Positions 2,524 through 38,510 of a stretch of 64,000 bases of DNA are shown here, piece after piece. Numbering within the stretch: the stretch's first letter is position 1; every line of letters begins with the position of its first letter. The DNA comes from Bacteroidota bacterium (GTDB taxonomy: Bacteria; Bacteroidota; Bacteroidia; Flavobacteriales; BACL11), in the NCBI GenBank assembly GCA_028408365.1, contig JAOOLD010000001.1, forward strand, positions 64,450 to 128,449, read 5' to 3'. The notes under the pieces were generated by a model. That model had not been told where the DNA came from, did no database searches, and worked only from the letters and a program-made list of their open reading frames with translations. The position numbers and the translations under genes were made by a program.

Positions 2524-2589
2524 AGCGCAATTTTAGGCAAATATAGTTTTTGATAAATAATTTTTTAATAAAATAGACTCATAAAATTG

Positions 2590-2597
2590 TATTTTTG
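2590..2597 (+). promoter_or_regulatory. Bacteroidota -7 promoter box TAnnTTTG (TATTTTTG), 4 nt upstream of ATG 2602
   Basis: Exact match to the TAnnTTTG consensus. The spacer is CTAT, followed by ATG. No convincing -33 TTTG was found. Confidence 0.45.
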
Positions 2598-2601
2598 CTA
2601 T

Positions 2602-5600
2602 ATGAAAAGTTCTGTAATTATTGAAAAAATAAATTTATTTAGAAATAAGTTTTATTTAAATCTAATAATAAAGGGAATTTTACTTTCAATTTTTTTTTCA
2701 ATTAATGGTTTTTTATTAATTGTATTCTTAGAGCATTTGGTATGGTTTGAATCATTAGTTAGACAATTTATTTTTTGGGGATTCTGCACCTCTAGTTTAA
2801 TATTTATCATATTTAATGTCATTAAACCTTTTCTTAAGATTTATCGCTTTGGCAATATAATTTCAAATAAACAAGCTGCTAATATTATTGGAGAATACTT
2901 TAGAGATATTGATGATAAGCTTCTGAACTTATTAGAGCTTGAAGAGATTAATGATGAAAACTCTGACTTACTAATTGCCAGTATTAATCAAAAAACAGAA
3001 CATTTAAATAAATTTAAATTTGAGGATGTAATAAATTTTAGCTCCAATAAAAAGTATCTAAAGCTACTATTTATACCCACTACAATAATAATATTGATTT
3101 TTATTACTGGAAATAATCAAATTATAAATGAGAGTTCAGCTAGAGTCATAAACTACAATGATATATTTACTAAGCCCGCTCCTTTTAAATTTATTTTAAA
3201 AAATAAAACACTTGATTTAATAGAAAACCGAAAACTTAAAGTTCAGCTAGAGCTTAAAGGTTCTAATTTGCCTAATGAGGTGTTCATTAGAATTGATGAT
3301 AGAGACCTTTTGATGTCAAAAGCTGAAAACTCTGACTTATATTCTTACGAGTTTTACAATATCAAAGAGTCATTCATTTTTAACTTTTATTCCAATGGAT
3401 TCTCATCTGAAAAATATAAAATTGAAGTAAAGAAAAGACCTCTAATTCTAGATTACATGATTAATTTTTCATATCCAAAACATACTTTCAAAAAACATGA
3501 TTCTCAAAAAAATATTGGAGAAATTTTTGTGCCGGAGGGGACTAAGACAAAATGGTCATTTAAAACAAAAAATGTTGATGAATTGATTTTTGCTCTTGAT
3601 AATATAATAGAAAGTAAAAGTTTTAATAATGATGATTTTGAAATTCAAAAAACTTTAATGAATTCTGGCAATTACAAATTAAAGCTTGTAAATAAGAATG
3701 GTGTCATTGATTCTAATTATTATTCAATAAGACTTTTAAAAGATAAATATCCAAAAATTAATGTTGAAGCTAATTTTGATTCAACAAATAATTTATTTGT
3801 ATATAATGGTTCAGCTTTTGACGATTATCAAATTTCAGATATCAAAATCAAGTATTTGAAAAATGAAAAAATAATAAATGAAACCTCATTAAAAATAAAT
3901 AAACAACGTGAAGAGTTTTTTGATTATAAGATTAATACAAATGAAATTAGCGAATTTGAATATGACAAACTTTATTTTGAAGTCTGGGATAATGATGGAG
4001 TAAATGGATTTAAATCGGCTAAAACTGAAGTTTTTAATCTTAATAGCACCAGCAAAATAGATGCAATTGCAAATAGGAACCAAAAAAATAATGAGCTTAA
4101 ATCAGCAATGCAATCCAGCTTTGAAACCATTCAAGAAATGAACGAAGAAATTGAAAAAATCAAGCGCTCATTAATCAATAACAAAAAACTTGATTGGAAC
4201 CAAAAAGAAAATGTCAAAGATTTATTAAAAAAACAAATGAAGCTTGAGAACGAAATTCAAAAATCTAAAGATCTTCTTAACGATTTAATTGAAAAAAATG
4301 AAATTCTTAGCCCAGAAATTATTGAAAAGCAGAAATTGCTAAATGAGATGATGGAAAAAGTTTTTGACGAAGAGCTTTTGAAGATGATGGATGAAATGCA
4401 AAAAGATTTTGAAAATTTAGATAAAGATGAAATTAAAAAACTCTTAGAAAATCTAGAGGACCAGAACTTAAACATTGAAGAAGAGCTAGATAGAGAAATT
4501 GAGTTATTCAAACAAATGGAAATTGAGCAAAGATTATCTGAACTAAATGAAAAAATAAAAGAGATAAAAAGTAAACAAGATAGTTTGACTAACAATAAAG
4601 ATATAGATCAAAACAGCATAGATAAACAAAATGATATAAAAAAAGAGTTTGATGAGTTCAAAAAAGATATTGATGAAATGCAAAATCTAAATGACTCATT
4701 AGAGAATCCTAATAATTTTGAAAATACTGAAGAATTAGAAAAAAAGATTGATGAAAGTCTTAATGAGAGCATAAAGAAAATGAAACTAGGTAATAAAAAA
4801 AGCTCAAAAAAGAGTCAGAAAAATACTAGTGATAAAATGCAAGACTTAGAAGATCAACTGTCAATGATGCTCTCTAGCTGTAAAGCGAATCAAAATTTTG
4901 AAAATCTTGAGACACTTAGACAAATTCTTGAGAATCTAATATCTATTTCTTTCTCTCAAGAGGAACTAATTATAAAAACTAAAGAAACAAACAAAAACAG
5001 TTCAGAATTCATACAAATAATAAGAGCTCAGAAAAAAATTAAAGATGATTCAGAAATTGTGAAAGACTCTCTGCTTGCACTTTCTAAAAGAGTTATTGAG
5101 ATAGAATCAATTGTAAACAAAGAAATAAATAAAATAAATAGCTACTTATCAAAATCTATTAAATCGTTAGAGGATAGGGATATAAGAAAATCAAATATTT
5201 CGCAACAATTTGTGATGACTTCAGCAAATAATCTTGCGCTTTTGTTAGATGAATCACTCAAACAAATGCAAAAACAATTAGCTTCGCAGACCCCTGGAAA
5301 TAAGCAATGTGACAACCCCGGAAGCGGGGCACCTTCACTATCACAACTCAAACAAATGCAGAAAAAATTGTTAGAGGAAATGAAAAATGGAGAAAGTGGT
5401 AAAAATGGATCTAAATCACTCGGAGAATCTCTTTCAAAAAAACTGATGCAACTTGCGCAATTACAACAAGAGGCTAAAGAAAATTTACTAAAAATGAGAG
5501 ATGAGCTAGGCAACGGAAAAAATAAAAGTGATATAGATAAGCTACTAGATGATATGGAAAAAAATAAGGATGATATAATTTTTAACAAAATATCTCAAAA

Positions 5601-5859
5601 AACACTAGATAGACAAAATAAAATATTATCAAGGTTATTAGATTTTGATGAAGCTGAAAGAGAGCAAGGTGAAGATGACAAAAGAGAATCCTTAGAATGG
5701 ATAATGAAAAATGACATTGAAACTGTAGATAAAGAAATTTCCAGGGAAAAGAAAAAAAATATTTCTGAGGAAATTTTAAAAAGAAATAATATTAAACTAA
5801 ACCCTTTTTATAAAAGAATAAATACTGATTATTTTAATAAGATTTCTCAAGATGATTAG
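2602..5859 (+). CDS. Large membrane-anchored coiled-coil protein of unknown function (DUF4175-like)
   Basis: 1085 aa from ATG 2602; the track's TTG at 2587 is less likely. It has N-terminal hydrophobic helices, a beta-rich middle region and a very long K/E/N/D-rich heptad-like C-terminal half with a QCDNPGSGAPS island. The gltX / this gene / ybeY / mnmG synteny matches what I recall for Flavobacteriia DUF4175 proteins. Confidence 0.7.
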   Translation: MKSSVIIEKINLFRNKFYLNLIIKGILLSIFFSINGFLLIVFLEHLVWFESLVRQFIFWGFCTSSLIFIIFNVIKPFLKIYRFGNIISNKQAANIIGEYFRDIDDKLLNLLELEEINDENSDLLIASINQKTEHLNKFKFEDVINFSSNKKYLKLLFIPTTIIILIFITGNNQIINESSARVINYNDIFTKPAPFKFILKNKTLDLIENRKLKVQLELKGSNLPNEVFIRIDDRDLLMSKAENSDLYSYEFYNIKESFIFNFYSNGFSSEKYKIEVKKRPLILDYMINFSYPKHTFKKHDSQKNIGEIFVPEGTKTKWSFKTKNVDELIFALDNIIESKSFNNDDFEIQKTLMNSGNYKLKLVNKNGVIDSNYYSIRLLKDKYPKINVEANFDSTNNLFVYNGSAFDDYQISDIKIKYLKNEKIINETSLKINKQREEFFDYKINTNEISEFEYDKLYFEVWDNDGVNGFKSAKTEVFNLNSTSKIDAIANRNQKNNELKSAMQSSFETIQEMNEEIEKIKRSLINNKKLDWNQKENVKDLLKKQMKLENEIQKSKDLLNDLIEKNEILSPEIIEKQKLLNEMMEKVFDEELLKMMDEMQKDFENLDKDEIKKLLENLEDQNLNIEEELDREIELFKQMEIEQRLSELNEKIKEIKSKQDSLTNNKDIDQNSIDKQNDIKKEFDEFKKDIDEMQNLNDSLENPNNFENTEELEKKIDESLNESIKKMKLGNKKSSKKSQKNTSDKMQDLEDQLSMMLSSCKANQNFENLETLRQILENLISISFSQEELIIKTKETNKNSSEFIQIIRAQKKIKDDSEIVKDSLLALSKRVIEIESIVNKEINKINSYLSKSIKSLEDRDIRKSNISQQFVMTSANNLALLLDESLKQMQKQLASQTPGNKQCDNPGSGAPSLSQLKQMQKKLLEEMKNGESGKNGSKSLGESLSKKLMQLAQLQQEAKENLLKMRDELGNGKNKSDIDKLLDDMEKNKDDIIFNKISQKTLDRQNKILSRLLDFDEAEREQGEDDKRESLEWIMKNDIETVDKEISREKKKNISEEILKRNNIKLNPFYKRINTDYFNKISQDD

Positions 5860-6262
5860 GTTTCATTTTACAAAAAGTTTCACATTAAAAAACAAAAGAA
5901 AAATAAAGAACTGGCTTAAGGAGATCGTTGTAAGTGAGAAAAAAAAGGTTGGTGATATAAACTATATTTTTTGTTCCAAGGAATACTTGAAAAAAATGAA
6001 TAATGACTACTTGTCAAAAAACTATGAGACTGACGTAATTTCTTTTGATTTTACAGATGATAATAAAATTTCTGGTGATATTTATATTAGTAGTGAAACT
6101 GTAAAAAAGAATTCAATTATATTTAATGTTAGTTTTAATAATGAATTAAAAAGAGTTATAGTTCACGGACTACTTCATTTATTAAATTACAATGATAAGA
6201 GTAAGCAAGAACAGAAAATAATGAGAGAAAAAGAAAACTTTTATATTAATTTAAATAATTGA
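5852..6262 (+). CDS. ybeY: rRNA maturation endoribonuclease YbeY
   Basis: 136 aa with the metal-binding motif VHGLLHLLNYND (H-x-x-x-H-x5-type). It overlaps the upstream gene by 8 nt. Confidence 0.9.
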   Translation: MIRFHFTKSFTLKNKRKIKNWLKEIVVSEKKKVGDINYIFCSKEYLKKMNNDYLSKNYETDVISFDFTDDNKISGDIYISSETVKKNSIIFNVSFNNELKRVIVHGLLHLLNYNDKSKQEQKIMREKENFYINLNN

Positions 6263-6281
6263 TTTTCAATATATTACAAGT

Positions 6282-8144
6282 ATGAAGTACGATATCATAG
6301 TAATCGGTGGAGGACATGCTGGATGTGAAGCCGCTCATGCTGCTGCTAAACTTGGATCTAAAGTTTTGATGATAACTCAGAACCTTGAAACAATTGCAAG
6401 GATGTCTTGCAATCCAGCAATGGGTGGCGTTGCAAAAGGTCAAATTTTAAGAGAAATTGATGCTCTAGGTGGGATGTCCGCAGTTGTGACTGATGAGTCA
6501 ATGATTCAGTTTAGAATGTTAAATAGGTCCAAGGGTCCAGCTATGTGGAGCCCTAGAGCTCAATGCGACAAAAAATTATTTGAAAAAAAATGGAGATATA
6601 TATTAGAACAAAATAAAAATATTGATTTCAAGCAAGACACAGTTAAAAATTTAATTATTAAAAGTAATAAAGTATGTGGTGTAATTACAATGCTTGGTAA
6701 TCAAATATTTTCAAATACAGTAATTTTATGTAGCGGAACATTTATGAACGGAATAATTCATCTAGGATTAAAAAATTACAAAGGTGGTAGATCTGGTGAA
6801 CCATCAGCTAAAGGAATTACTAAGCAGCTAATAGATTTAGGCTTTGAACACGGAAGAATGAAAACAGGTACTCCTCCAAGGTTAGATGGCAGGACAATAG
6901 ATTATAATGAACTAATCGAACAAGCAGGTGATAAAAATCCGGGTTCATTTTCATTTACAAATACATCTAAACTATCTAATCAATTAAGTTGCTTTATTAC
7001 TTACACTAATAGCAAGGTTCACGAGATTTTGCAAGAGGGATTTGAAAAATCACCAATGTTCACAGGCAGAATTCAAGGAATTGGGCCAAGATATTGTCCG
7101 TCAATTGAGGATAAAATTGATAGATTTAAGGAAAGAGAAAGACATCAGCTATTTATTGAGCCAGAGGGTAGAGAAACTGTAGAGATATATTTAAATGGAT
7201 TCTCCACCTCATTACCAGAGGAAGTTCAAGTCGAAGCACTAAGACATGTAAAGGGACTTGAAAATGCAAAACTATTTAGAGCAGGTTATGCAATTGAATA
7301 TGATTATTTTCCTCCAACACAATTAAATTATTCTTTAGAAACCAAATTGATAAAGAACTTGTTTTTTTGCGGGCAGATTAACGGAACAACAGGATACGAA
7401 GAGGCAGGTTGTCAAGGTCTCATTGCAGGTATAAATGCACATAGAAAATGTAAAGGTTTAAGTCAATTTATATTAAAAAGGTCCGATGCATATATAGGAG
7501 TTCTAATAGACGATTTAATTACAAAGGGCACTGATGAGCCATATAGAATGTTTACATCAAGAGCAGAGTATAGACTTTTATTAAGACAAGATAATGCAGA
7601 TATAAGATTAACAAAAATAGGATATGAAATTGGACTCATTGACAGAAAGCGATATGATAAACTAGAAAGCAAAATTAATACTGTTAAAAAGCTAGAAAAA
7701 ACAGTAAAGAAAATAAGTGCCGAACCCATTAAATTTAATTCTATTCTAAGTAATAAAAAATCATCACAAATCAAGCAAAAATTAAAGTTAGACTCTTTGC
7801 TTTCACGACCTAATATTAATTTTAATGATCTTAAAAATGGTTCAAATAAGTTAAGTGAATTTATTAATGATAATAATATAAACAAGTTAGAGGAGGAGCA
7901 AGTAGAAATTAATATTAAATATGGAGGTTATCTAAAAAGAGAAAAAGATAATGTTGAAAAATCAAAAAGACTCGAAGATGTAAAAATTCCTGACGATTTT
8001 GAATTTCATAAGCTACACTCTATCTCAAGCGAAGCAAAAGAAAAGCTGTCTTCTATTAATCCCAAAACTATAGGACAGGCGAAGAGAATTAGTGGAGTTA
8101 GTCCAGCTGACGTGAATGTTTTACTCGTTTATATGGGTCGGTGA
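6282..8144 (+). CDS. mnmG: tRNA uridine-5-carboxymethylaminomethyl modification enzyme MnmG (GidA)
   Basis: 620 aa with the FAD motif DIIVIGGGHAGCEAA, plus MSCNPAMGG and GQINGTTGYEEA. Full length. Confidence 0.95.
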   Translation: MKYDIIVIGGGHAGCEAAHAAAKLGSKVLMITQNLETIARMSCNPAMGGVAKGQILREIDALGGMSAVVTDESMIQFRMLNRSKGPAMWSPRAQCDKKLFEKKWRYILEQNKNIDFKQDTVKNLIIKSNKVCGVITMLGNQIFSNTVILCSGTFMNGIIHLGLKNYKGGRSGEPSAKGITKQLIDLGFEHGRMKTGTPPRLDGRTIDYNELIEQAGDKNPGSFSFTNTSKLSNQLSCFITYTNSKVHEILQEGFEKSPMFTGRIQGIGPRYCPSIEDKIDRFKERERHQLFIEPEGRETVEIYLNGFSTSLPEEVQVEALRHVKGLENAKLFRAGYAIEYDYFPPTQLNYSLETKLIKNLFFCGQINGTTGYEEAGCQGLIAGINAHRKCKGLSQFILKRSDAYIGVLIDDLITKGTDEPYRMFTSRAEYRLLLRQDNADIRLTKIGYEIGLIDRKRYDKLESKINTVKKLEKTVKKISAEPIKFNSILSNKKSSQIKQKLKLDSLLSRPNINFNDLKNGSNKLSEFINDNNINKLEEEQVEINIKYGGYLKREKDNVEKSKRLEDVKIPDDFEFHKLHSISSEAKEKLSSINPKTIGQAKRISGVSPADVNVLLVYMGR

Positions 8145-9150: not shown

Positions 9151-9158
9151 TATATTTG
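9151..9158 (+). promoter_or_regulatory. -7 promoter box TATATTTG, 4 nt upstream of ATG 9163
   Basis: Exact consensus match. The spacer is TAAA, followed by ATG. This is the first gene of the FN3 / galE / polysaccharide gene string. Confidence 0.45.
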
Positions 9159-9162
9159 TAAA

Positions 9163-10440
9163 ATGTTAAGACTACTGATATTATTTGTATTTGCAGTATG
9201 TATTGAAAGTCAATCTCAATGCTTAAGCACGGATTCGACATATAGTACAAACGTAAATTATACTAATGCCAAAGTAAATTGGGAAAAAGTTGATTCAGCA
9301 ATCTTTTACAGAGTAAGGTACAAAGATGTAAATGCAAGTACTTGGAGCTTTCAAAATAACATTGATTCTTCAGAAATAAATAAACTATTAATTGGACTAA
9401 CACCTCAAACGCAATATGTATGGCAAATAAAATCATATTGTGACAGTCTATCAAATACATCTTCACTATGGTCTACAACAGATAGTTTTTTTACTGAAAA
9501 TATAACACTAGCATACCCTACAAGCATTTACGCTAACAACATAACTTTTTACAATGCACAAGTCAACTGGACTGGAGCAAATAATACAGACCGCTTCAAA
9601 ATCAGATATAGAATATTCGGAACAACCACATGGAATTATCTTTCCAATATAGCAGGTTTTGTCTCAAGCACACAATTACCACAACTAAACCAACTAACTT
9701 TATATGAGTGGTCAATAATGTCATATTATGACACTACAAATCTGCTCGGTTCCCTTTGGTCACCGATTGATACATTTACCACAGCTCAGTTTATTCCGGC
9801 ACCTTTTTTTCCTGTAATAAACACTTCAATTAGCTCAAATTTATGTGGAGAAAAAGTAGATTTATTTGTATCAATCAGTCAATCAGCTAATCAACCGGAC
9901 ATAGAGCAATCGGTTGTTACAACGAACGAAGGACAATTTGATATTGGAGGCTTATCAATTGGTGATACAGTTGGTTATGCAGATGTTTACTTATCAAATT
10001 TATCAGCTACGGCTACATTAAAAGTGGGAATTGTTTTTGGCCAAAACTATGCTTTTATTAACGCTGTAGATAGTTTAGGGGGGTTAATTGGCTTTTTTTC
10101 AATTGAAAATGAAACAAATGGGGTTAAAATCACTTCCACATCCCCACCAGATGGCAATAATTACACAAGCGGTTTAACAACTGATATTACTTTTAATGAA
10201 ATTTTTATAAATCCAAACTTTTATACAAACCTTATAATAACTACAAATATAGAGTCTGAACTTCAAGACCAAATTATGATTAAGGACACAATACAAATAA
10301 ACTGTCCGTCATCAACTTTTGAAATAATTAATGATAAAAAAACAATAGGGTGTTTTAATTTACTAGGAAAAAATGTAAAAAGAAAAAAATACTCTTTTAG
10401 GTTTCTAAACAATCAAAAAAAAATAATAATTTATGAATAA
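9163..10440 (+). CDS. Secreted protein with two tandem FN3-like repeats
   Basis: It has a signal peptide (MLRLLILFVFAVCIESQSQ). Two repeats of about 95 aa share the pattern N-A-(K/Q)-V-N-W ... (F/Y)-(R/K)-(V/I)-R-Y-(K/R) ... T-W ... Y-x-W-x-I-x-S-Y ... S-L-W-S ... F-(F/T)-T. It overlaps galE by 8 nt. Confidence 0.65.
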   Translation: MLRLLILFVFAVCIESQSQCLSTDSTYSTNVNYTNAKVNWEKVDSAIFYRVRYKDVNASTWSFQNNIDSSEINKLLIGLTPQTQYVWQIKSYCDSLSNTSSLWSTTDSFFTENITLAYPTSIYANNITFYNAQVNWTGANNTDRFKIRYRIFGTTTWNYLSNIAGFVSSTQLPQLNQLTLYEWSIMSYYDTTNLLGSLWSPIDTFTTAQFIPAPFFPVINTSISSNLCGEKVDLFVSISQSANQPDIEQSVVTTNEGQFDIGGLSIGDTVGYADVYLSNLSATATLKVGIVFGQNYAFINAVDSLGGLIGFFSIENETNGVKITSTSPPDGNNYTSGLTTDITFNEIFINPNFYTNLIITTNIESELQDQIMIKDTIQINCPSSTFEIINDKKTIGCFNLLGKNVKRKKYSFRFLNNQKKIIIYE

Positions 10441-11425
10441 AGTAATTGTCACTGGTGGCGCAGGATATATAGGTTCACATACTTGTCTTAAACTAATAGA
10501 ATTAGGTTACGAACCTCTTATAATAGACAATCTTTCTAATACAAGTATTGAAAATATAAAGGGGGTTGAAAGCATTACAAATAAAAAATTAAATTTTTAT
10601 GAATTAGACTGCTGTAGTGCTCAAAAGCTTGACATGATCATAAAAAAAGAAAATGGTATAATTGGAGCTATTCATTTTGCAGCATATAAATCAGTTGAAG
10701 AATCAGTAAGAGAGCCTGAAAAATTCTTTTACAACAATTTAAAGTCACTTGAGTCTTTAATTGATGTTATGATTAATCAGAATTTAAATAATTTGATTTT
10801 TTCTTCTTCTTGCACTGTTTATGGTAGTCCAGATAGTTTACCTGTAGATGAAAATGCTCCTTTCAAAAAAGCAGAATCTCCGTATGGAGAAACAAAACAA
10901 CTCTGCGAAAAAATCATTGAAAAATCAACGCTATTTAGTGTTTGTCTTAGATATTTTAATCCAATCGGTTCGCACAATAGCGGATTAATTGGTGACAGAT
11001 CTGCTGATAAGCCAGCAAATTTAGTACCAATAATATGCGAAGTAGCCTATGGAAAAAGAGAGAAATTAATAATTAATGGCAATGATTATAATACAAAAGA
11101 TGGGACTTGTGTTAGAGATTATATTCATGTTGAGGATTTGGCACTAGCACACATAAACGCGCTTGAGTACTGTATCAAAAATAAGAGTAAGAGTATATTT
11201 AACATAGGTACTGGCCAAGGTTTATCAGTAGCTGAAACTGTTAGGATTTTTGAGGAATGTAATAATATTAAAGTAAATTTAGAGTATGGGCCCAGACGAA
11301 CTGGTGATGTCGCTGAAATATACTCTGACACTAAAAAATCTAGTAAATATCTAAAGTGGAAATCAGAAAAATCCATTTCAGATGCATTAAAAAGTGCTTG
11401 GAACTGGGAGCTAAATAAAACTTAA
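10433..11425 (+). CDS. galE: UDP-glucose (or UDP-GlcNAc) 4-epimerase
   Basis: 330 aa SDR with VIVTGGAGYIGSH, a catalytic S...Y-G-x-x-K block (SPYGETK) and RYFNPIG. Confidence 0.85.
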   Translation: MNKVIVTGGAGYIGSHTCLKLIELGYEPLIIDNLSNTSIENIKGVESITNKKLNFYELDCCSAQKLDMIIKKENGIIGAIHFAAYKSVEESVREPEKFFYNNLKSLESLIDVMINQNLNNLIFSSSCTVYGSPDSLPVDENAPFKKAESPYGETKQLCEKIIEKSTLFSVCLRYFNPIGSHNSGLIGDRSADKPANLVPIICEVAYGKREKLIINGNDYNTKDGTCVRDYIHVEDLALAHINALEYCIKNKSKSIFNIGTGQGLSVAETVRIFEECNNIKVNLEYGPRRTGDVAEIYSDTKKSSKYLKWKSEKSISDALKSAWNWELNKT

Positions 11426-11467
11426 ATGAGTCTTATAAGTTTACTACCTTAGTAAATCATCTTCTCA

Positions 11468-12073
11468 ATGAAAAACATTAAAGAACATAGCTACAAAATT
11501 TCAAAAAAAGACAGAGAAAATTTACACAATCATAGTTCTGCTCTTATTTGGTTTACTGGCCTATCTGGCTCGGGCAAGTCGACACTTGCAAATTTACTTG
11601 AACAAGAGCTACATAATCTAAAAATATCTACTTTTGCATTGGATGGTGATAACATAAGGCATGGCCTAAATAAAGATTTGGGCTTTTCATCAGATGATAG
11701 AAGTGAGAATATAAGAAGAATTGGAGAGGTCGCAAAATTATTGACACACGCAGGAATACTAACTATTGCGGCTTTTGTATCACCATTTAAAAAAGATAGA
11801 GAAATAGTAAAAAATATAGTTGGTTCAGATCATTTTATCGAAATCTATGTAAATGCTAGTCTTGCTGAGTGCGAAAAAAGGGATACTAAAGGGTTGTACA
11901 AAAAAGCTAGAAATGGTGAGATAAAAAATATGACAGGTATTTCTTCTGCATATGAAGCGCCAGAAAATCCAACTTTAGAAATTGATACAAACAAGGAAAC
12001 AATTGATGAATCAATGCAAAAAATCAAAAAATGCATAATAAAAAAGCTTAAATATGGTAAATTATATAATTGA
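11468..12073 (+). CDS. cysC: Adenylyl-sulfate (APS) kinase
   Basis: 201 aa with the P-loop [14 protein letters not shown], plus [17 protein letters not shown] and FVSPF motifs. Confidence 0.9.
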
Positions 12074-12959
12074 TCATCTCAAAGAGTTAGAATCAGAAGC
12101 TATTTTTGTTATTAGAGAAATTGCTTCACAATTTGAAAATCCTGCATTACTATTTTCTGGAGGAAAAGATTCGATTATACTTACTCACTTAGCAAAAAAA
12201 GCATTCTATCCTGCCAAAATACCATTTCCGCTAATTCATATTGACACAGGTCATAACTTCCCCGAAACCATAAAATTTAGAGATGATTTAGTTAATGGAC
12301 TTGGAGTTAATTTAATTGTCGGCTTAGTGCAAGAAAGCATAGATAAGGGGCTTGTCAAAGAAGAAACTGGAGTAGATGCGTCAAGAAATTCTCTTCAAAT
12401 AGCTACACTTCTTGAAACATTGGAGGTTAACAAAATTGATGGTGCAATGGGAGGCGCAAGACGGGATGAGGAAAAAGCCAGAGCCAAAGAAAGATTTTTT
12501 TCTCATAGAGATGAATTTGGTCAATGGGATCCAAAAAATCAAAGACCAGAATTGTGGAATTTATTTAACGGAAGAAAAAACTATGGAGAACACTTTAGGA
12601 TTTTTCCAATTTCTAACTGGACAGAAATGGATGTGTGGGAATACATAAAGTTAGAAAAAATAGAACTGCCAAGTCTTTATTTTTCTCATCAAAGAGAATG
12701 TATAATCAGAGACAATATTATCCTTGCGAATTCAAATTTTATTCAGCTTAAAGATAATGAAGAGGTCAAAAAATTAACTGTGAGATTTAGAACATGCGGA
12801 GATATGCCAATCACTGGAGCAGTAGAATCAAAAGCAAATAATATTGACGATATAATAAAAGAAGTTGCTACTACGAGAACTACAGAAAGAGGAGGAAGAG
12901 CCGATGACAAAAGAGCTGAAACAGCCATGGAGGACAGAAAAAAACAAGGGTATTTTTAA
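12054..12959 (+). CDS. cysD: Sulfate adenylyltransferase subunit 2
   Basis: 301 aa with the PAPS-reductase-like fold motif LFSGGKDS, plus [14 protein letters not shown] and a C-terminal EDRKKQGYF. Confidence 0.93.
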
Positions 12960-14221
12960 TGAATAGAAACAAAAAAGAATTATTAAGATTTACTACAGCA
13001 GGTAGTGTTGATGATGGTAAGAGTACATTAATTGGAAGACTTTTGTATGACAGTAAATCAATTTTTCAAGATCAACTAGATGCTGTTGAACGCACCAGTA
13101 AAAATAAAGGATTTGACTACGTAGATTTATCATTACTAACAGATGGGTTAAGGTCTGAAAGAGAGCAAGGCATTACAATAGATGTTGCATATAGATACTT
13201 TGCAACTCCTAAAAGAAAGTTTATCATAGCCGACACACCAGGGCATATTCAATATACTCGTAATATGGTGACCGGAGCCTCTACGGCCAACTTAGCAATC
13301 ATACTTATAGATGCAAGGAAAGGAATGCTTGAACAAACTCATAGACACTCATTTATAGCTTCACTTTTAGGTATTCCTCATGCAATTGTATGTATAAACA
13401 AAATGGACCTTGTAAATTATGATAAAAAAGTATATGACAAAATAGTAAGTGATTTCAAAGCTTTTTCATCAAAACTAGAAGTAAGAGATGTTCAATTTAT
13501 TCCGATTTCAGCATTAAATGGTGACAACGTAGTAAATAGGTCAAAAAATATGACTTGGTATGAGGGGAGCACTTTGCTATATCATTTAGAAAATGTACAT
13601 ATTTCTAGCGACTATAACCAAATTGATTGTAGATTTCCTGTTCAAACAGTAATTAGACCACATACTAAAGAACATCAAGACTATCGTGGTTTTGCTGGAA
13701 GAATTGATGGTGGAATATTTAAAGTTGGTGATAAAATAAAAACATTGCCAACTGGATTCACATCAAAAATAAAAAGCATCTGCTCGCACAATACAGAACT
13801 AAATGAGGCTTACACACCCATGTCAGTGAACATAGTACTTGAAGACGAAATTGATATTAGTAGAGGTGATATGATAGTGCGAGAAAATAATATACCGAAC
13901 GTTAGTCAGGACATTGAATTATTAGTTACTTGGATGAATCAGAATCCCTTGGCCAGCAGAAAAAAAGTTATAATTAAGCATACAACAAATGAATGTGTTG
14001 GACTTGTCAGAGAGTTAAAATATAAAATTGATATTAACACTCTTCACAGAATTGAAAATGTAGAATCTATACAAATGAATGACATTGCTAGAATATCAAT
14101 TAGAACCTCAAAGCCTCTATTTTTTGATAGCTACAAAAAAAATAGAAGAACTGGAAGTTTAATCTTAATAGATGAACAAACTAATGAAACTATTGGAGCA
14201 GGAATGATAATTAACAAATAA
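12959..14221 (+). CDS. cysN: Sulfate adenylyltransferase subunit 1 (GTPase), not fused to an APS kinase
   Basis: 420 aa with GTPase motifs GSVDDGKST, DTPGH and NKMD. TAATG 1-nt overlap with cysD. Confidence 0.93.
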   Translation: MNRNKKELLRFTTAGSVDDGKSTLIGRLLYDSKSIFQDQLDAVERTSKNKGFDYVDLSLLTDGLRSEREQGITIDVAYRYFATPKRKFIIADTPGHIQYTRNMVTGASTANLAIILIDARKGMLEQTHRHSFIASLLGIPHAIVCINKMDLVNYDKKVYDKIVSDFKAFSSKLEVRDVQFIPISALNGDNVVNRSKNMTWYEGSTLLYHLENVHISSDYNQIDCRFPVQTVIRPHTKEHQDYRGFAGRIDGGIFKVGDKIKTLPTGFTSKIKSICSHNTELNEAYTPMSVNIVLEDEIDISRGDMIVRENNIPNVSQDIELLVTWMNQNPLASRKKVIIKHTTNECVGLVRELKYKIDINTLHRIENVESIQMNDIARISIRTSKPLFFDSYKKNRRTGSLILIDEQTNETIGAGMIINK

Positions 14222-14227
14222 TCTTAA

Positions 14228-15277
14228 ATGAAATCAATCTTAATAACTGGTGGCGCAGGGTTTATTGGATCACATGTAGCCAGACTATTTGTGAAAAAGT
14301 ATCCAGAATACAAAATTTATAATTTAGATAAACTCACATATGCTGGCAATCTTGAAAACATTTCAGATATAGAAGATTTCAAAAATTACAGGTTCATCAA
14401 AGGTGATATCTGTGACACTGACCTCTTATTAAGAGTCTTTAATAAATATAAATTTGACAGCATTATCCATTTAGCAGCAGAGTCACATGTTGATAGGTCT
14501 ATTACAAACCCTTTAGATTTTGTAAATACTAACGTGATTGGTACTGTTAATTTATTAAATCAGTTCAAAGAAACACATAAAAATAATTTTGATGGAAAAC
14601 TGTTTTATCATGTAAGTACAGATGAAGTTTATGGTTCACTTGGAGAAAGTGGATTTTTCACTGAAGAAACTTCATATGATCCAAATTCTCCATACTCAGC
14701 TTCAAAAGCCAGCTCTGATCATTTTGTAAGAGCATATGGAGAAACGTACGGACTTCCATATATAATATCAAATTGTTCAAATAATTATGGCCCACATCAA
14801 TTTCCAGAAAAACTTTTACCATTGTTTATTCATAATATAATAAATAGCCGTCCCTTACCTGTCTATGGTGATGGTACTTATACAAGGGACTGGCTTTATG
14901 TAAAAGATCACGCTTGCGCAATAGATATTTTATTTCACTCAAATAAAATAGGCCACACATACAATATTGGGGGCTTCAATGAGTGGAAAAATATAGATTT
15001 AGTTAAAGAGCTCTGTGCTCAGATGGACATAAAGCTGAAGAAAAAAGAAAGTAGTTCTGAAAGTCTTATTGAATTTGTGAAGGATCGTCCTGGTCATGAT
15101 TTAAGATATGCTATTGATGCTTCAAAAATTAAAAAAGATTTAAATTGGAAACCATCTGTTAATTTTAAAAAAGGATTAAGTTTGACTATAGATTGGTATT
15201 TAAATAATAAAAATTGGCTGAAGAATGTTACATCTGGTGAATACAGAAATTATTATAAAAAGCAATACTCAGCATGA
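14228..15277 (+). CDS. rfbB: dTDP-glucose 4,6-dehydratase
   Basis: 349 aa with ILITGGAGFIGSH, HVSTDEVYG, SPYSASKASSD and RPGHDLRYAID. Confidence 0.92.
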   Translation: MKSILITGGAGFIGSHVARLFVKKYPEYKIYNLDKLTYAGNLENISDIEDFKNYRFIKGDICDTDLLLRVFNKYKFDSIIHLAAESHVDRSITNPLDFVNTNVIGTVNLLNQFKETHKNNFDGKLFYHVSTDEVYGSLGESGFFTEETSYDPNSPYSASKASSDHFVRAYGETYGLPYIISNCSNNYGPHQFPEKLLPLFIHNIINSRPLPVYGDGTYTRDWLYVKDHACAIDILFHSNKIGHTYNIGGFNEWKNIDLVKELCAQMDIKLKKKESSSESLIEFVKDRPGHDLRYAIDASKIKKDLNWKPSVNFKKGLSLTIDWYLNNKNWLKNVTSGEYRNYYKKQYSA

Positions 15278-16365
15278 TGTTAGTTGAGTTCGTTAGCGAA
15301 ATATTAAAAGAAAATAGTTTAGCAATGATCTTAGCTGGAATTTTTGGATCATATTTAGTCACATCACAATCACTTCCGTTCATTATTTACTTCAGCAAAG
15401 TAAAGAATCTTACAGCTAAAGTTGATGAAAGAAGCTCTCATACAAGTAATATACCTAATATTGGCGGAATTGGAATTATTGCTGGAATCTACATAGTTAC
15501 GCTATCCTTATCATTTTTCATATTGAATTACGAAGAATCAAAATTTATAATCGCCCTATTTATTTCACTGTTAATTTTATTATTTGTCGGTTTCAAAGAT
15601 GACATGCTAGGCCTATCTGCAATAGCGAAATTGTTAACTGAAATTGGTACTGCAACTGCATTCATTCTTTTAACTGATTGTAGATTGGACAATTTTTATG
15701 GATTATTTGGTATTTATGAACTCAACTACTTTGTTTCAATAATTTTATCAATTTTTATATTTGTTGTTACTATAAATTCATATAACCTAATAGATGGAAT
15801 AGATGGACTAGCTGGCGGTTATGGGATAATTGCGATGATTGCATTTTTATTTCTAAGCTTATCGGCAAATAATTTGGTTGGTTTGATATTGTGTGCAACT
15901 ATAATTGGTAGTCTCGCTGGATTTTTAAAGTTCAATTTAAGCAATAGCAAAAGGAAAATTTTTATGGGAGATACTGGATCTTTAGTAGTTGGATTTTTGA
16001 TTTCTGTGACTGCACTTATTACCTTAAGTTCAAACAATGATTATAGCCAAATTTCTAATAATATACCCGTTTTAGTTCTCTCTATCTTGTCTTTTCCATA
16101 TGTTGATACATTAAGGGTAATGGTAATTAGGAGAAAAAATAAGCAGAAATTCTTTAAACCTGACAAAAACCACATTCACCATAAATTGATAAATGCAGGT
16201 AAAAGCCACGTTTCTTCCTCAATAATAATTTTAGCGGTATATTTATCCTCTATATTGTTTTGTATACTATTTCATGAGATAAATATCACCATTCATTTTA
16301 TAATATCACTTTTATATTCTTTACTTAGCTTGTTAACTTTAGTTTTCATATTTGACAAAAAATGA
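15274..16365 (+). CDS. Polyprenyl-phosphate HexNAc-1-phosphate transferase (MraY/WecA family, initiating transferase)
   Basis: 363 aa polytopic membrane protein with FKDDMLGLS and NLIDGIDGLAGG motifs, as in WecA/WbpL/MraY. ATGA overlap with rfbB. Confidence 0.85.
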   Translation: MMLVEFVSEILKENSLAMILAGIFGSYLVTSQSLPFIIYFSKVKNLTAKVDERSSHTSNIPNIGGIGIIAGIYIVTLSLSFFILNYEESKFIIALFISLLILLFVGFKDDMLGLSAIAKLLTEIGTATAFILLTDCRLDNFYGLFGIYELNYFVSIILSIFIFVVTINSYNLIDGIDGLAGGYGIIAMIAFLFLSLSANNLVGLILCATIIGSLAGFLKFNLSNSKRKIFMGDTGSLVVGFLISVTALITLSSNNDYSQISNNIPVLVLSILSFPYVDTLRVMVIRRKNKQKFFKPDKNHIHHKLINAGKSHVSSSIIILAVYLSSILFCILFHEINITIHFIISLLYSLLSLLTLVFIFDKK

Positions 16366-17698: not shown

Positions 17699-17855
17699 TT
17701 GCCAAAAGATTTTTTTAAATATAATAGTGTATAATTAAACGAATACCTTTTTTGTAAAACTTAATAAACAATCAAAAATCTTATTAATCTAAATTAATTT
17801 TAAAATTCATTTATTTAAAATAGATTTTAATATTTTTACAGAAATGGCAATCTAG

Positions 17856-17883
17856 TAGGGTTTAAATTAATGAAACCTATTTG
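17856..17883 (+). terminator. Possible intrinsic terminator hairpin after the 16412-17698 gene
   Basis: TAGGGTTT (17856-17863) pairs with AAACCTA (17873-17879), giving a 7-bp stem with one bulged G and a 9-nt loop, followed by TTTG. The short T-run makes it weak. Confidence 0.25.
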
Positions 17884-17897
17884 AATTAAATTAATTT

Positions 17898-17920
17898 AGA
17901 GCAACTTCAATTGTTGCTCT
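17898..17920 (+). terminator. Second hairpin in the same spacer
   Basis: AGAGCAAC (17898-17905) and GTTGCTCT (17913-17920) form a perfect 8-bp stem with a 7-nt loop (TTCAATT). Only TT follows it. Confidence 0.3.
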
Positions 17921-17970
17921 TTAAAACAATTAATCATATTCAATTATGTGGTTGGCAAAAAATTAATTGA

Positions 17971-21329: not shown

Positions 21330-22417
21330 AAGTAGCACTAATTACTGGCGTCACAGGTCAAGATGGCTCATATTTAGCAGAGCTATTACTTAATAAAGGG
21401 TACATGGTTCATGGAATTAAGAGAAGAGCCTCTTCTTTTAATACTCAGAGAATTGACCATATATATCAAGACCCTCACGAGGAAAATCCAAGATTTAAAT
21501 TACATTATGGTGATTTGACTGATTCATTAAATATTACTAAAATTATAAAACTTTGTCAACCGGATGAAATATATAATCTAGGCGCTATGTCTCATGTTAA
21601 AGTGTCATTTGACGTACCTGAATATGTGGGGCAAGTTGATGGGCTGGGAACACTTAGAATACTGGAAGCAGTTCGATTACTTGGCTTGGAGAAAAAAACT
21701 AGAATATACCAAGCCTCTACATCTGAACTTTACGGAGGCATGCAGGGTAACAAAAATGCAAAGGGGTTTTACGACGAGCAATCGACTTTTCATCCTAGAT
21801 CTCCTTACGGTGTTGCAAAATTATATGGGTTTTGGATTACTAAACATTATCGTGAAGCTTACAAGATGTTTGCATGTAATGGAATATTATTCAACCATGA
21901 ATCACCTCGAAGAGGTGAAACTTTTGTAACTCGTAAAATAACTCGTGCTGTTGCTAAAATTGCATTAGGAAAAAAAGATAAGTTTTATTTGGGTAATCTT
22001 GACGCCAAAAGAGATTGGGGGCATGCAAAAGATTACGTAAGAATGATGTGGATGATTTTACAAGCAGAAACAGCTGAGGATTGGGTTATTGCAACATCAG
22101 AAACTACTAGCGTCAGGGATTTTGTAATATTAGCATTTAGAGAAGTTGGTATTGAAATTGAATTTAAGGGTAAAGGATTGGATGAAAAAGCCTTTGTGGT
22201 CGCATGCAACAACAAAAATTATCAAATAACATTAGGCAAAGAAGTTTTATCTATTGATCCACAATATTTTAGACCAACAGAAGTAGATTTGTTAATAGGC
22301 GACCCATCTAAAGCTAAAAACAAACTAGGATGGGAACCCGAATTTAAGATTACTGATTTGGTTGCTGACATGATGAATTCTGATCTATTAATTTTTTCAA
22401 AAAAATACAATGTTTAA
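21326..22417 (+). CDS. gmd: GDP-mannose 4,6-dehydratase
   Basis: 363 aa with [35 protein letters not shown] and [10 protein letters not shown]. Confidence 0.95.
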
Positions 22418-23432
22418 AAATAAAACCTTATTAATAACTGGAGGAACAGGTTCTTTTGGTAATGCTGTTCTAAATTACTTTGTTCAATCTAAAATTAAAG
22501 AAATAAGAGTCTTTAGTAGAGATGAGAAAAAACAAGAGGACATGCGTATTAATCATAAAGATGACAAAATTAACTTTATTATTGGTGATGTAAGGGATTA
22601 TCAAAGCATAAGTAATGCAATGAGTGGCGTTGATTATGTATTTCATGCTGCGGCTCTTAAGCAAGTTCCTTCATGTGAATTTTTTCCAACTGAAGCTATA
22701 AAAACTAATATTCTTGGTGCTGAAAATGTTTTAGAGGCTGCAGCTAATAATAATGTAAAAAAAGTAATTGTTTTAAGCACTGATAAGGCTGTATACCCAA
22801 TTAACACTATGGGAATTTCTAAAGCAATGATGGAAAAGCTTGCTGTAAGTAAGGCAAGAGATTCTAGAGTAATAAATAATAAGGCTGTAATTTGTGCAAC
22901 TAGATATGGAAATGTCATGTGTTCAAGAGGCTCAATAATTCCTCTATTTATTAAACAAATCAAAGAAGGTAAAGACCTTACAATTACAAACCCAAAAATG
23001 ACAAGATTTATGATGTCATTAGCTGATTCTGTGAATTTGGTATTGTTCGCGTTTAAAAATGCTAACCCTGGCGATATATTTGTCCAAAAATCTCCAGCTA
23101 CAACTATCGAGACTTTAGCGAAAGCGCTATTAGAACTGTTTAATGCAAACAACAAAATTAAAATAATTGGAGCAAGACATGGAGAAAAAATGTATGAATC
23201 TTTATGTGCTAAAGAGGAAATGTCAAAGGCTGACGATTTAGGCAGCTTTTTCAGAATACCAGCAGATTTTCGAGATTTAAACTATACAAAATACTTGAAG
23301 AAGGATGGTCCCAAACTACAAGAAAAAGAATATAATTCAGACAATACTAAACGTCTTAACGTTAAAGAGCTAAAGCATCTTTTGTTAACACTTGATGATG
23401 TCAAAGAAGAGTTGAGGAAAAATAGTAATTAA
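22410..23432 (+). CDS. UDP-N-acetylglucosamine 4,6-dehydratase/5-epimerase, CapE/FnlA/WbjB type
   Basis: 340 aa and near-colinear with S. aureus CapE as I remember it. Matching blocks are [39 protein letters not shown], and [21 protein letters not shown] with the MxxxK variant of Yxxx[12 protein letters not shown] and EYNSDNT also match. Confidence 0.85.
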
Positions 23433-23434
23433 AA

Positions 23435-24520
23435 ATGATTCCTATAGTTAAACCTTACATTCCACCTCGAAATCAATTAATGCCTGCTTTGCAGAAAACT
23501 ATCTACTCTGGTTATATTGCTCAAGGCAAAAAAGTAGAAGATTTTGAAAAAATGTTAGGTCAGTATTTTGAAAATAACAAAGTGCTGACTGTTAACTCAG
23601 GGACATCTGCTCTTCATTTGTCTTTAATACTTGCAAACGTTGGTCCTGGCGATGAAGTAATATCAACCGCCTTGACAGCGGAGCCAACAAATACAGCAAT
23701 TTCCCAAACTGGTGCTAAGGTTGTATGGGCAGATATTGAACGGTCAACTGGACTGATATGTCCAAAATCAGCTGAGAAACTAATAAACAACAAAACCAAA
23801 GCTATTATGATTGTTCATTATGCAGGCATGGTTGCTAATTTAAATAAGTTTTATAGTATTAGAAAAAAATATAATATTCCTATAATTGAAGACTGTGCTC
23901 ATGCTTTTGGGGCTGAGTACAAAAATAAAAAGCTTGGATATTGCTCTGATTTTGCTATTTATTCTTTCCAAGCTATAAAACATCTGACAACAATTGATGG
24001 GGGATTATTAATTCTTAAAAAATCTTCTGACTATGATCGTGCAAAAAAACTAAGATGGTTTGGGTTAGATAAAACAAAACCAAGACTAAAGAATAATATA
24101 ACTGAGTGTGGATTTAAGTACCACATGAATGATGTGAACGCCACTTTCGGACTCATTCAATTAAATTATCTAAAAGAGAACGTAAATAAATATATTGAGA
24201 ATGGATTATTTTTTGATAGAGAATTAAAAGATGTTGATGGGATACAAATTATTAAATACCATGATGATACTAAACCATCCTATTGGCTATATACAGCTAT
24301 GGTTGACAGAAAAGATGATTTTATTGAACATATGAACAGCAACGGTATACAGTGCTCTTCTTTACACTTGAGAAACGATAGACATTCAATTTTTGAGGAT
24401 GGTTCTCATTTGAAAGGATTAGAATCCTTTTATGGAAATTATGTTCACTGGGGGTGCGGATGGTGGATCACAGAAAAAAATCGAAATAAAATCGTTGAAC
24501 TGATAAAAAAAGGGTGGTAA
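23435..24520 (+). CDS. DegT/DnrJ/EryC1/StrS-family sugar aminotransferase (canonical)
   Basis: 361 aa with IIEDCAHAFG and the PLP-lysine block YSFQAIKHLTTIDGG. That lysine is K182, codon AAA at 23978-23980. Confidence 0.85.
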   Translation: MIPIVKPYIPPRNQLMPALQKTIYSGYIAQGKKVEDFEKMLGQYFENNKVLTVNSGTSALHLSLILANVGPGDEVISTALTAEPTNTAISQTGAKVVWADIERSTGLICPKSAEKLINNKTKAIMIVHYAGMVANLNKFYSIRKKYNIPIIEDCAHAFGAEYKNKKLGYCSDFAIYSFQAIKHLTTIDGGLLILKKSSDYDRAKKLRWFGLDKTKPRLKNNITECGFKYHMNDVNATFGLIQLNYLKENVNKYIENGLFFDRELKDVDGIQIIKYHDDTKPSYWLYTAMVDRKDDFIEHMNSNGIQCSSLHLRNDRHSIFEDGSHLKGLESFYGNYVHWGCGWWITEKNRNKIVELIKKGW

Positions 24521-25594
24521 ATGATTCCAATTTTCAAACCATACATGCCTGAGAACGTTACAGAGGGAATAAATAAAATTCTTTACTCTGGCTCATTATC
24601 TTATGCAAAATATGGTAAGAAATTTGAAAAAGATCTTTCTAGATATATTGGCTGTAAAAATATTTTGACAATAAGTTCTTATAACCAAGCAATGATGGTT
24701 CTTTTATCTACATTGGAGCTAAATAAAAATGATGAAATAATAGCATCACCTGTTAGTTGTCTTGCTTCAAACCAACCTTTTGCAACTAGGGGCCTTAAAG
24801 TAGTTTGGGCTGATATTAATCCACATAAAGGGACCTTGTGCGTTGATGATGTAAAGTCAAAAATAACTTCGAAAACAAAAGCAATATTCCATAATCATTT
24901 TTGTGGCTATTTAGGTAATGTTAATGAGATTAATTCTTTAGGAAATGAGTTTGGCATACCAGTAATTGACGATTGTATTGAAGCTTTTGGATCAATTCTT
25001 AATAATAAAAAAAGTGGAAATTTAGGTACAGATATATCTGTTTTTTCATTTCAAACTGTGCGATTACCAAATACAATTAACGGCGGCGGATTAGTTTTTA
25101 GTGATGATAAACTGTTTGAAAAGGCAAAAAAAATAAGAGATTATGGTATAGATCGAAGTAAGTTTAGAGATTCTATTAATGAAATTAATGTAGATTGCGA
25201 TATAAAAATTGAGGGTTATGGAGCTTTAATGAGCGAGTTAAATTCATTTATAGGTTCGTGTCAATTAGAAGAAATTTCAAAATTAATCAAACAACATGAA
25301 AAAAATGCTGAAATATGGAACTCAAGAATAAATAGATTTAAAAATATTAAGCCAATCGAAATAACTAATAATTCTTCACCAAATTATTGGGTTTACGGAA
25401 CATTATCAAAAAATAAATATGAAAGTATTAGAAAATTTAGAGACATGGGTTTTTATGCAAGTGGTGTACATATAAATAATAATATTTATTCGATTTTTAA
25501 TAATAAGATTGAATTAAAAGGGGTCAGTGAATTTATTAGTCGCTTTGTTGCGCTTCCATGTGGCTGGTGGTTTAACTTATCAAATATTGAATAA
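24521..25594 (+). CDS. DegT-family paralog lacking the PLP Schiff-base lysine (Lys->Arg)
   Basis: 357 aa. It is a clear tandem paralog of the upstream gene (MIPIFKPYMPE vs MIPIVKPYIPP; VVWADI in both; CGWW near both C-termini). The aligned block reads FSFQTVRLPNTINGG, with R181 (codon CGA at 25061-25063) where the lysine should be. Confidence 0.8.
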   Translation: MIPIFKPYMPENVTEGINKILYSGSLSYAKYGKKFEKDLSRYIGCKNILTISSYNQAMMVLLSTLELNKNDEIIASPVSCLASNQPFATRGLKVVWADINPHKGTLCVDDVKSKITSKTKAIFHNHFCGYLGNVNEINSLGNEFGIPVIDDCIEAFGSILNNKKSGNLGTDISVFSFQTVRLPNTINGGGLVFSDDKLFEKAKKIRDYGIDRSKFRDSINEINVDCDIKIEGYGALMSELNSFIGSCQLEEISKLIKQHEKNAEIWNSRINRFKNIKPIEITNNSSPNYWVYGTLSKNKYESIRKFRDMGFYASGVHINNNIYSIFNNKIELKGVSEFISRFVALPCGWWFNLSNIE

Positions 25595-28682: not shown

Positions 28683-28703
28683 AAATTACATGTGTTGTAA
28701 TAT

Positions 28704-32054: not shown

Positions 32055-32055
32055 A

Positions 32056-35991: not shown

Positions 35992-35994
35992 ATC

Positions 35995-38508: not shown

Positions 38509-38510
38509 AC

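Follow-up and report, generated by a model that had tools for sequence, protein, structure and literature searches.

A conserved PAPS-supply module in a flavobacterial surface-polysaccharide locus whose strain-specific cassette carries no recognizable sulfotransferase

Three genes for the synthesis of 3′-phosphoadenosine-5′-phosphosulfate (PAPS), cysC, cysD, and cysN, lie together at positions 11468 to 14221 of a 64-kb stretch of contig JAOOLD010000001.1 (hereafter the window) from a Bacteroidota bacterium of the Flavobacteriales lineage BACL11 (assembly GCA_028408365.1). CysD and CysN adenylylate sulfate to adenylyl sulfate (APS) in a reaction driven by GTP hydrolysis, and CysC phosphorylates APS to PAPS. 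In the window, the trio stands at the 5′ end of a Wzx/Wzy-type polysaccharide locus that occupies approximately 10.4 to 40.9 kb and is encoded entirely on the forward (+) strand. We consider it somewhat probable that the trio is a conserved PAPS-supply module, that the sulfotransferases it serves belong to a swappable cassette, and that the cassette of this strain happens to lack them. Such a module is of an already known kind, and its polysaccharide-locus context recurs widely in Flavobacteriia. We infer its role as a PAPS supplier to cassette-encoded sulfotransferases from this recurring context and from the loci of close relatives.

All three genes retain the hallmarks of functional enzymes. 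The product of cysC (11468 to 12073), an adenylyl-sulfate kinase, matched the Pfam family APS_kinase (PF01583) over its full length (E = 5.7e-66; 221.7 bits against a cutoff of 21.1), along with the NCBIfam models NF003013 (285 bits; cutoff, 163) and TIGR00455 (257 bits; cutoff, 138.7). In an alignment of 10 homologues, the P-loop GLSGSGKST (residues 31 to 39), LDGDNIR (58 to 64), FVSP (103 to 106), and KGLYKKAR were invariant, so that a match above curated cutoffs is accompanied by the P-loop and APS-binding motifs (GxxGxGKST, LDGD, FxSP) of an APS kinase. The small subunit of sulfate adenylyltransferase, CysD (12054 to 12959), matched NF003587 (E = 1.6e-133; 444.6 bits; cutoff, 195) and NF009214 (421 bits; cutoff, 413) and carries the PP-loop SGGKDS. 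The GTPase subunit, CysN (12959 to 14221), matched NF003478 (592.7 bits; cutoff, 590) and TIGR02034 (E = 4.8e-170; 566 bits; cutoff, 336), has the GTPase motifs GSVDDGKST, DTPGH, and NKMD, and is not fused to a kinase domain. Equivalog matches for both subunits, their motifs, and the 1-bp overlap of their genes together identify a heterodimeric CysD/CysN ATP sulfurylase. CysD and CysN are 91 to 94% identical to their counterparts in same-lineage relatives and are at least as conserved as the neighboring rfbB and galE products. The closest homologues of CysC are marine metagenome proteins and entries named "MAG: Flavobacteriales bacterium," and among cultured genera Winogradskyella comes closest, at approximately 67% identity; the source is therefore an uncultured marine flavobacterium.

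The trio is embedded in the locus by tight junctions. An earlier note on this DNA, made from the sequence, had placed it between galE and rfbB on one strand with overlapping or nearly abutting genes, and the family assignments and junction coordinates agree. A gene for a galE-like NAD-dependent epimerase (10433 to 11425; Pfam Epimerase, 9.7e-45), which holds the same position in relatives L002, L004, and L011 (our locus handles), is separated from cysC by 42 bp. The genes cysC and cysD overlap by 20 bp, and a gap of 6 bp separates cysN from rfbB (14228 to 15277; dTDP-glucose 4,6-dehydratase type; GDP_Man_Dehyd, 1.1e-96; Epimerase, 3.1e-66). In turn, rfbB overlaps by 4 bp the gene for a WecA-like initiating phosphoglycosyl transferase of glycosyltransferase (GT) family 4 (15274 to 16365; Glycos_transf_4, 3.9e-33). 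This spacing makes it probable that cysCDN share a transcript with galE, rfbB, and the GT4 gene. Two UDP-sugar dehydrogenase genes, epimerase genes, and gmd complete the 5′ block. It is followed by a strain-specific cassette (22410 to 37633) in which neither Pfam nor NCBIfam reveals a sulfotransferase. The cassette encodes, in order, a PseB/FnlA-like dehydratase, two DegT aminotransferases, a formyltransferase, Wzx, two GT2 enzymes, Wzy, a GT1 enzyme, a PaaK/CapK-like adenylating enzyme, a second GT1 enzyme, an MBOAT protein, a 311-aa SGNH protein, and WecG. The export and chain-length genes wza and wzc (37741 to 40874; Poly_export/SLBB and Wzz/GNVR/AAA_31) form the conserved 3′ end of the locus and are syntenic with porZ-recO in relatives.

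The enzymes that would be expected to accompany PAPS synthesis were sought throughout the window. Our Pfam scan covered main-strand open reading frames (ORFs) of at least 100 aa at E values up to 0.01, except gidA, which was named by eye and from the Pfam annotation of relatives. Across the 64 kb it returned no sulfotransferase family (Sulfotransfer_1 to Sulfotransfer_5, Stf0, Gal-3-O, or arylsulfate sulfotransferase [ASST]), no PAPS/APS reductase (cysH) apart from CysD itself, no sulfite reductase, and no sulfate transporter. Linkage of cysDN to the genes of an assimilatory sulfate-reduction operon was thus not found within 64 kb, in line with the earlier note's remark that cysH, cysI/J, and a sulfate permease are missing beside the trio. 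The same scans detected neither a CysQ of the inositol-monophosphatase type nor DUF2061, so the window does not have the cysQ-DUF2061-cysCDN block of other Bacteroidota. More sensitive searches of the six-frame translation of the window were likewise empty: a hidden Markov model (HMM) built from eight sulfotransferases of relatives' loci, run unfiltered, reached a best E of 0.73; phmmer with seven further sulfotransferases, three of them from a same-lineage genome, reached 0.08; and the relaxed pattern [KR]xG[ST][TS] for the 5′-phosphosulfate-binding (5′-PSB) loop occurred in none of the six-frame ORFs of at least 150 aa. The earlier note's statement that no canonical sulfotransferase or PKxGTT-type loop is present therefore held under every method applied, including the HMM comparison that it had proposed, which gave no Sulfotransfer_1 to Sulfotransfer_5, Stf0, or ASST match in the window. 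The locus thus lacks even one sulfotransferase gene of the kind found in the sulfated-capsule locus of Vibrio sp. KMM 8419.

Related loci in other Bacteroidota do pair the module with such genes. We scanned one genome per species with a CysC alignment and recovered at least 80 loci, in which genes were called and labeled against the window proteins; 32 Bacteroidota loci were tabulated, and the counts given here and below refer to the matches listed. Two or more polysaccharide genes lay within 10 kb of cysC in at least 22 of these 32 species loci, a CysQ-type phosphatase was encoded in 26, and DUF2061 was encoded directly upstream of cysC in half (16/32). Pfam Sulfotransfer_1/3 proteins with canonical 5′-PSB motifs were encoded within 10 kb in nine loci (L006, L007, L013, L018, L020, L024, L025, L030, and L038). 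The cysQ-DUF2061-cysC-cysD-cysN blocks encode orthologous enzymes (CysC, 55 to 68% identical) in the same order as the window and sit among rfb, ugd, gmd, wzx, and GT genes in Winogradskyella, Xanthomarina, Formosa, Algicola, Salinimicrobium, Crocinitomicaceae, and others; in Winogradskyella schleiferi, for example, the order is DUF2061-cysC-cysD-cysN-cysQ-gmd-fcl-wecB-rfbB-rfbA-rfbC-ABC2. Whereas most of these blocks include cysQ, many include DUF2061, and nine have a sulfotransferase nearby, the window has none of the three.

The CysC scan listed no relative above 66% identity, and genomes of the same lineage were reached instead by exact-protein look-ups. Their GidA and PorZ proteins are 95 to 97% and 88% identical, respectively, to those of the window. 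L002 to L004 share the order galE-DUF2061-cysC-cysD-cysN-rfbB-GT4-ugd, and at the site where L002 and L004 have DUF2061, the window has the clean 42-bp gap between galE and cysC (11426 to 11467). An identical CysN, with the same three genes, is found on contig JAOOLV010000008.1 (L001) of assembly GCA_028408945.1, from the same population. That contig breaks off within the GT4 gene (window position 15274 onward), right before the variable region; a break at the edge of a cassette is a usual sign of co-occurring strains with differing cassettes.

Look-ups of Wza homologues on long contigs gave access to the variable regions of the lineage. One relative, L172 (GCA_902526335.1), has the same wza-wzc-ugd-porZ flank as the window and a PorZ that is 88.5% identical, and its cassette reads cysC-epimerase-wzx-ST-wzy-ST-ST-GT1-epimerase-GT, where ST denotes a sulfotransferase gene. 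All three ST proteins carry a canonical 5′-PSB motif (RSGST, RSGTT, or RAGTT) and a 3′-phosphate-binding (3′-PB) motif (RDP or RNP); two are clear sulfotransferases, and Pfam matches the first only faintly. Five further cassette types obtained in this way (L166, L169/170, L173, L177, and L181) contained no sulfotransferase by Pfam. The wzc-ugd-porZ 3′ flank of the window recurs in four of these five, the flank of L177 being different. Relatives thus carry differing cassettes between the same conserved flanks. A metagenome scan with the GDP-mannose dehydratase returned mostly short or unrelated contigs, few of them still linked to cysCDN, and no sulfotransferase match. In L011, GidA is 96% identical to that of the window, but CysC, CysN, and RfbB are only 63, 78, and 73% identical, and the gene order is rearranged. 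This combination of matching housekeeping genes and diverged CysC, CysN, and RfbB indicates that the module evolves with the locus rather than with the chromosome. An ORF of L011 (18450 to 19754) with a weak match to the sulfotransferase HMM (2.4e-5) was discarded because Pfam identifies it as Wzx-like.

Under the explanation that we favor, cysC-cysD-cysN would supply PAPS as part of the conserved 5′ block of the main Wzx/Wzy surface-polysaccharide locus. In Flavobacteriia, the module would be the fixed part, and the PAPS-using sulfotransferases would be encoded by the strain-specific cassette, which is flanked by the 5′ sugar-nucleotide genes on one side and wza/wzc on the other. This cassette would be exchanged between strains, and the version present here is predicted to direct an aminated, N-formylated, and O-acylated glycan without a sulfotransferase. 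The PAPS made by this strain would then serve a transferase whose gene lies elsewhere in the genome, or it would play no part in making this glycan; in the latter case, linkage to the locus or an additional contribution to sulfur assimilation would explain why the module is kept. With no sulfotransferase in the cassette, either an unlinked enzyme sulfates the glycan or the glycan bears no sulfate. Cassette turnover accounts for the missing sulfotransferase better than a hidden enzyme does. The earlier note had taken a cysC module in a polysaccharide locus to point to glycan sulfation. As a general inference this is supported, since the same setting recurs across Bacteroidota with sulfotransferases in nine of 32 loci and in L172. 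It does not extend to establishing sulfation of this strain's own glycan, as the cassette contains no recognizable sulfotransferase and both cysQ and DUF2061 are missing.

Several observations weigh against the explanation just given. The window contains no sulfotransferase family, and the absence of cysQ and DUF2061, found in 26 and 16 of the 32 relatives' loci, respectively, leaves a reduced module. In addition, the cotranscription of cysCDN with its neighbors is read from gene spacing. Finally, the genome of Zunongwangia profunda SM-A87 contains one reported cysC-cysD-cysN trio (ZPR_0539 to ZPR_0541), located near a polysaccharide cluster at approximately ZPR_0565, and its PAPS reductase and sulfite reductases are encoded elsewhere (PMC2864250), an arrangement that makes a dual or purely assimilatory role plausible for the trio.

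It is accordingly possible, if rather unlikely, that the trio is the general and perhaps only route of sulfate activation in this bacterium, that it feeds a PAPS-dependent CysH encoded elsewhere, and that its position in the locus is inherited synteny with no relevance to the glycan. Beyond the precedent of Z. profunda (PMC2864250), such a role would fit the lack of a sulfotransferase, cysQ, and DUF2061 in the window and the strong conservation of CysD and CysN. Yet assimilatory clusters of Flavobacteriaceae look different. Like the window, they encode a CysD/CysN ATP sulfurylase, but they combine it with cysH and sulfite reductase, have no cysC, and lie near methionine genes (PMC7477175), whereas the trio of the window includes cysC, has no cysH or sir, and is surrounded by sugar-nucleotide genes. 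Kordia genomes make do without cysC in their assimilatory cysND-cysH-sir cluster, and Kordia antarctica has a separate set of cysC and cysND (PMC7477175), which argues that cysC-linked copies in the family are not primarily assimilatory. Furthermore, as L011 demonstrates, the module diverges and is rearranged along with the polysaccharide genes and not with the housekeeping flanks, and relatives pair it with cysQ and sulfotransferases.

It is much less probable that the module no longer has a function in this strain, stranded when a cassette swap removed the sulfotransferases and now heading toward decay. The loss of DUF2061, marked by the clean 42-bp gap, together with the lack of cysQ and sulfotransferases, would suit the erosion of a sulfation system. 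Decay is difficult to reconcile with three intact reading frames in which every catalytic motif is kept, with CysD and CysN that match relatives at 91 to 94% and are no less conserved than RfbB and GalE, and with the presence of the same three genes in another assembly of the same population.

The proteins of the cassette bear on whether an enzyme of another family could sulfate the glycan. The earlier note had suggested that a transferase might be hidden among locus proteins read as something else, and its three candidates proved to belong to other families. Its leading candidate, the 311-aa protein encoded at 35995 to 36930, has no family match in Pfam or NCBIfam, the only cassette protein of which this is true. 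Its homologues are named SGNH/GDSL hydrolases by NCBI, a few with PF07611 or PF13472, and its invariant residues include G56-H57-S58 and D281-x-x-H284, corresponding to the serine nucleophile of block I and the D-x-x-H of block V. A profile search matched the acetyltransferase chains 6vjp and 6wn9 (E = 0.0017). An AlphaFold (AF2) model with a pLDDT of 93.8 consists of a long N-terminal helix (residues 2 to 44) followed by an alpha/beta domain, for which nearly all of the best 50 Foldseek matches in the PDB were SGNH esterases, DltD, and PatB, none of the 50 being a sulfotransferase (DltD structures 3bma, 6o93, and 7dxm; PatB structure 7tjb; E = 6e-6 to 1e-4). The gene begins 4 bp after the stop codon of a gene for an MBOAT-family membrane O-acyltransferase (34558 to 35991; MBOAT, 3.2e-29), from which we predict that the protein is the acyl-transfer partner of that enzyme. 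DltB/DltD and PatA/PatB are known pairs of an MBOAT protein and an SGNH partner, and the fold, catalytic residues, N-terminal anchor, and gene adjacency all agree with an SGNH acyltransferase partner of the DltD/PatB/OatA-C type. As a sulfotransferase, this protein was rejected. The other two are 24521 to 25594, a clear DegT/pyridoxal phosphate aminotransferase (3.2e-55), and 27774 to 28682, a GT2 enzyme (Pfam, 9.8e-8; rhamnosyltransferase TIGR01556, 2.4e-15, below cutoff). Between the two GT1 genes, 32005 to 33384 has no Pfam match at E values up to 0.01 and is a PaaK/CapK-like adenylate-forming enzyme by AMP-ligase models (1.5e-34); its placement suggests an acyl or amino acid decoration of the glycan. 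As a whole, the gene content of the cassette predicts a glycan with amino sugars, N-formylation, and O-acylation.

That a locus protein of an unrecognized sulfotransferase family sulfates the glycan is therefore very improbable: the intact cysCDN, apparently cotranscribed with the locus, speak for it, and the weak GT2 match of 27774 to 28682 and the lack of a Pfam match for 32005 to 33384 make these two the candidates, but every cassette protein is positively assigned to another fold or family, the SGNH domain of 35995 to 36930 faces outward from its membrane anchor, where no PAPS is available, and the relatives that sulfate use canonical Sulfotransfer_1/3 enzymes. We hold equally slim expectations for the broader proposal that the glycan is sulfated without a linked canonical sulfotransferase by a cassette protein or an unlinked protein of an unrecognized family. 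If true, that protein would represent a new family of bacterial carbohydrate sulfotransferases in an abundant open-ocean flavobacterium.

Dedicated PAPS synthesis for a surface or secreted glycan has precedents outside Bacteroidota. The rhizobial nodPQ and nodH genes devote PAPS synthesis to the sulfation of a secreted glycoconjugate, with NodQ being a CysN-CysC fusion and the sulfotransferase NodH encoded alongside. The window differs in that CysC is encoded by a separate gene and no transferase is linked. In Vibrio sp. KMM 8419, second copies of cysC, cysN, and cysD are found with sulfotransferase genes in the cluster for a chemically proven sulfated capsule, and the sister strain KMM 8434, in which one sulfotransferase is missing, is predicted to be unsulfated (PMC11641403). 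This system resembles the window in having a dedicated PAPS-synthesis set inside a surface-polysaccharide locus, and it resembles the window's lineage in that related strains differ in the presence of sulfotransferases in a variable region. The two differ in gene order, which is kinase first (cysC-cysD-cysN) in the window, and in export route and transferase content: the Vibrio cluster has three sulfotransferase genes and an ABC-transporter (Kps) route, whereas the window has Wzx/Wzy/Wza/Wzc and no sulfotransferase.

Around the 5′ end of the locus, the gene for a secreted fn3-repeat protein (9163 to 10440; weak fn3 matches and a lipoprotein-like signal) overlaps the start of galE by 8 bp. With 82 to 94% identity and conserved synteny among relatives, the protein marks the 5′ edge of the polysaccharide locus and may be a part of it. 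Its gene is probably the first of the transcription unit, and a Bacteroidetes -7-like element, TATATTTG, is found just 5′ of it (9151 to 9158). Scans of 8.8 to 18.2 kb placed no + strand terminator at any junction from galE to the GT4 gene, the single + strand match falling inside cysC, and numbers of sigma-70 promoters (55 versus 51.5) and terminators (5 versus 2.9) were at chance level; the sigma-70 model is the wrong type for Bacteroidota. The Bacteroidetes-type promoter pattern had no + strand match from 10.3 to 15.7 kb and none before cysC. Its 10 matches, against 8.1 expected, were not an enrichment, and only the site before porZ looks meaningful. As weak evidence, these results are compatible with a single transcript that begins with the fn3 gene and reaches at least ugd1. 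The two UDP-sugar dehydrogenase genes are separated by a 272-bp AT-rich gap (17699 to 17970) that contains a hairpin at 17898 to 17920 with an 8-bp G+C-containing stem (AGAGCAAC...GTTGCTCT); the gap may mark a boundary inside the operon or act in regulation. The remainder of the window, which has a G+C content of approximately 29%, is housekeeping in character, with genes for tRNA synthetases, ybeY, gidA, porZ, recO, an RND efflux system, dxs, and rpoN. An ORF of 1,090 aa between gltX and ybeY (2587 to 5859) has no Pfam family and is 91 to 94% identical and syntenic in same-lineage genomes.

Relatives' loci hold further genes beside the module or within the cassette. The DUF2061 membrane protein, of approximately 140 aa, contains an internal duplication of the unit KRHxAKTITWRxxGTxDT...GLKIG...TKMxLYYxHERxW (L002, 9586 to 9990; L004, 9593 to 9994; L005, 9564 to 10004; and 13 more loci); our literature search on DUF2061 and on sulfated O-antigens of Flavobacteriaceae found nothing specific. 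Transporters of the SLC13 type (CitMHS/Na_sulph_symp with two TrkA_C domains), of which the window has none, stand immediately before cysC in three of the 32 loci (L015, 7672 to 9465, divergent; L031, 1356 to 3131; L059, 1846 to 3654) and probably provide dedicated sulfate uptake for the module. Directly after cysN, two of the 32 loci, from Maribacter and Arenibacter metagenome-assembled genomes, encode an ASST-like Arylsulfotran_2 protein (L021, 12915 to 14249; L032, 6677 to 8008), which is odd beside a PAPS module since, to our knowledge, characterized ASSTs are PAPS independent. Among the cassettes of the lineage, an NKWYS-family protein (PF10364, "putative capsular polysaccharide synthesis protein"), not present in the window, is encoded right before wecG in L169 (5145 to 5984), L170 (8188 to 9027), and L173 (8249 to 9118). 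The cassette of L177 encodes a Phosphodiest (PF01663) protein (5573 to 6661) and five proteins without a Pfam match and may specify decoration with a phospho-substituent.

The cysCDN trio has been annotated as assimilatory in the genome papers of Kordia (PMC7477175) and Zunongwangia (PMC2864250), which may mislead. Conversely, sulfation cannot be predicted from cysCDN in a polysaccharide locus alone, because the transferase comes and goes with the strain-specific cassette. The recurrence of the PAPS module in polysaccharide loci of Bacteroidota, together with sulfotransferases in nine of the 32 loci listed, suggests that members of this group make sulfated capsules or O-antigens fairly often. 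Sulfated surface glycans are regarded as uncommon in bacteria and have been described mostly in cyanobacteria and a few marine Proteobacteria. If they are common in these major marine degraders of polymers, sulfated glycans would bear on recognition by phages and grazers, and also on the seawater pool of sulfated polysaccharide that is degraded slowly.

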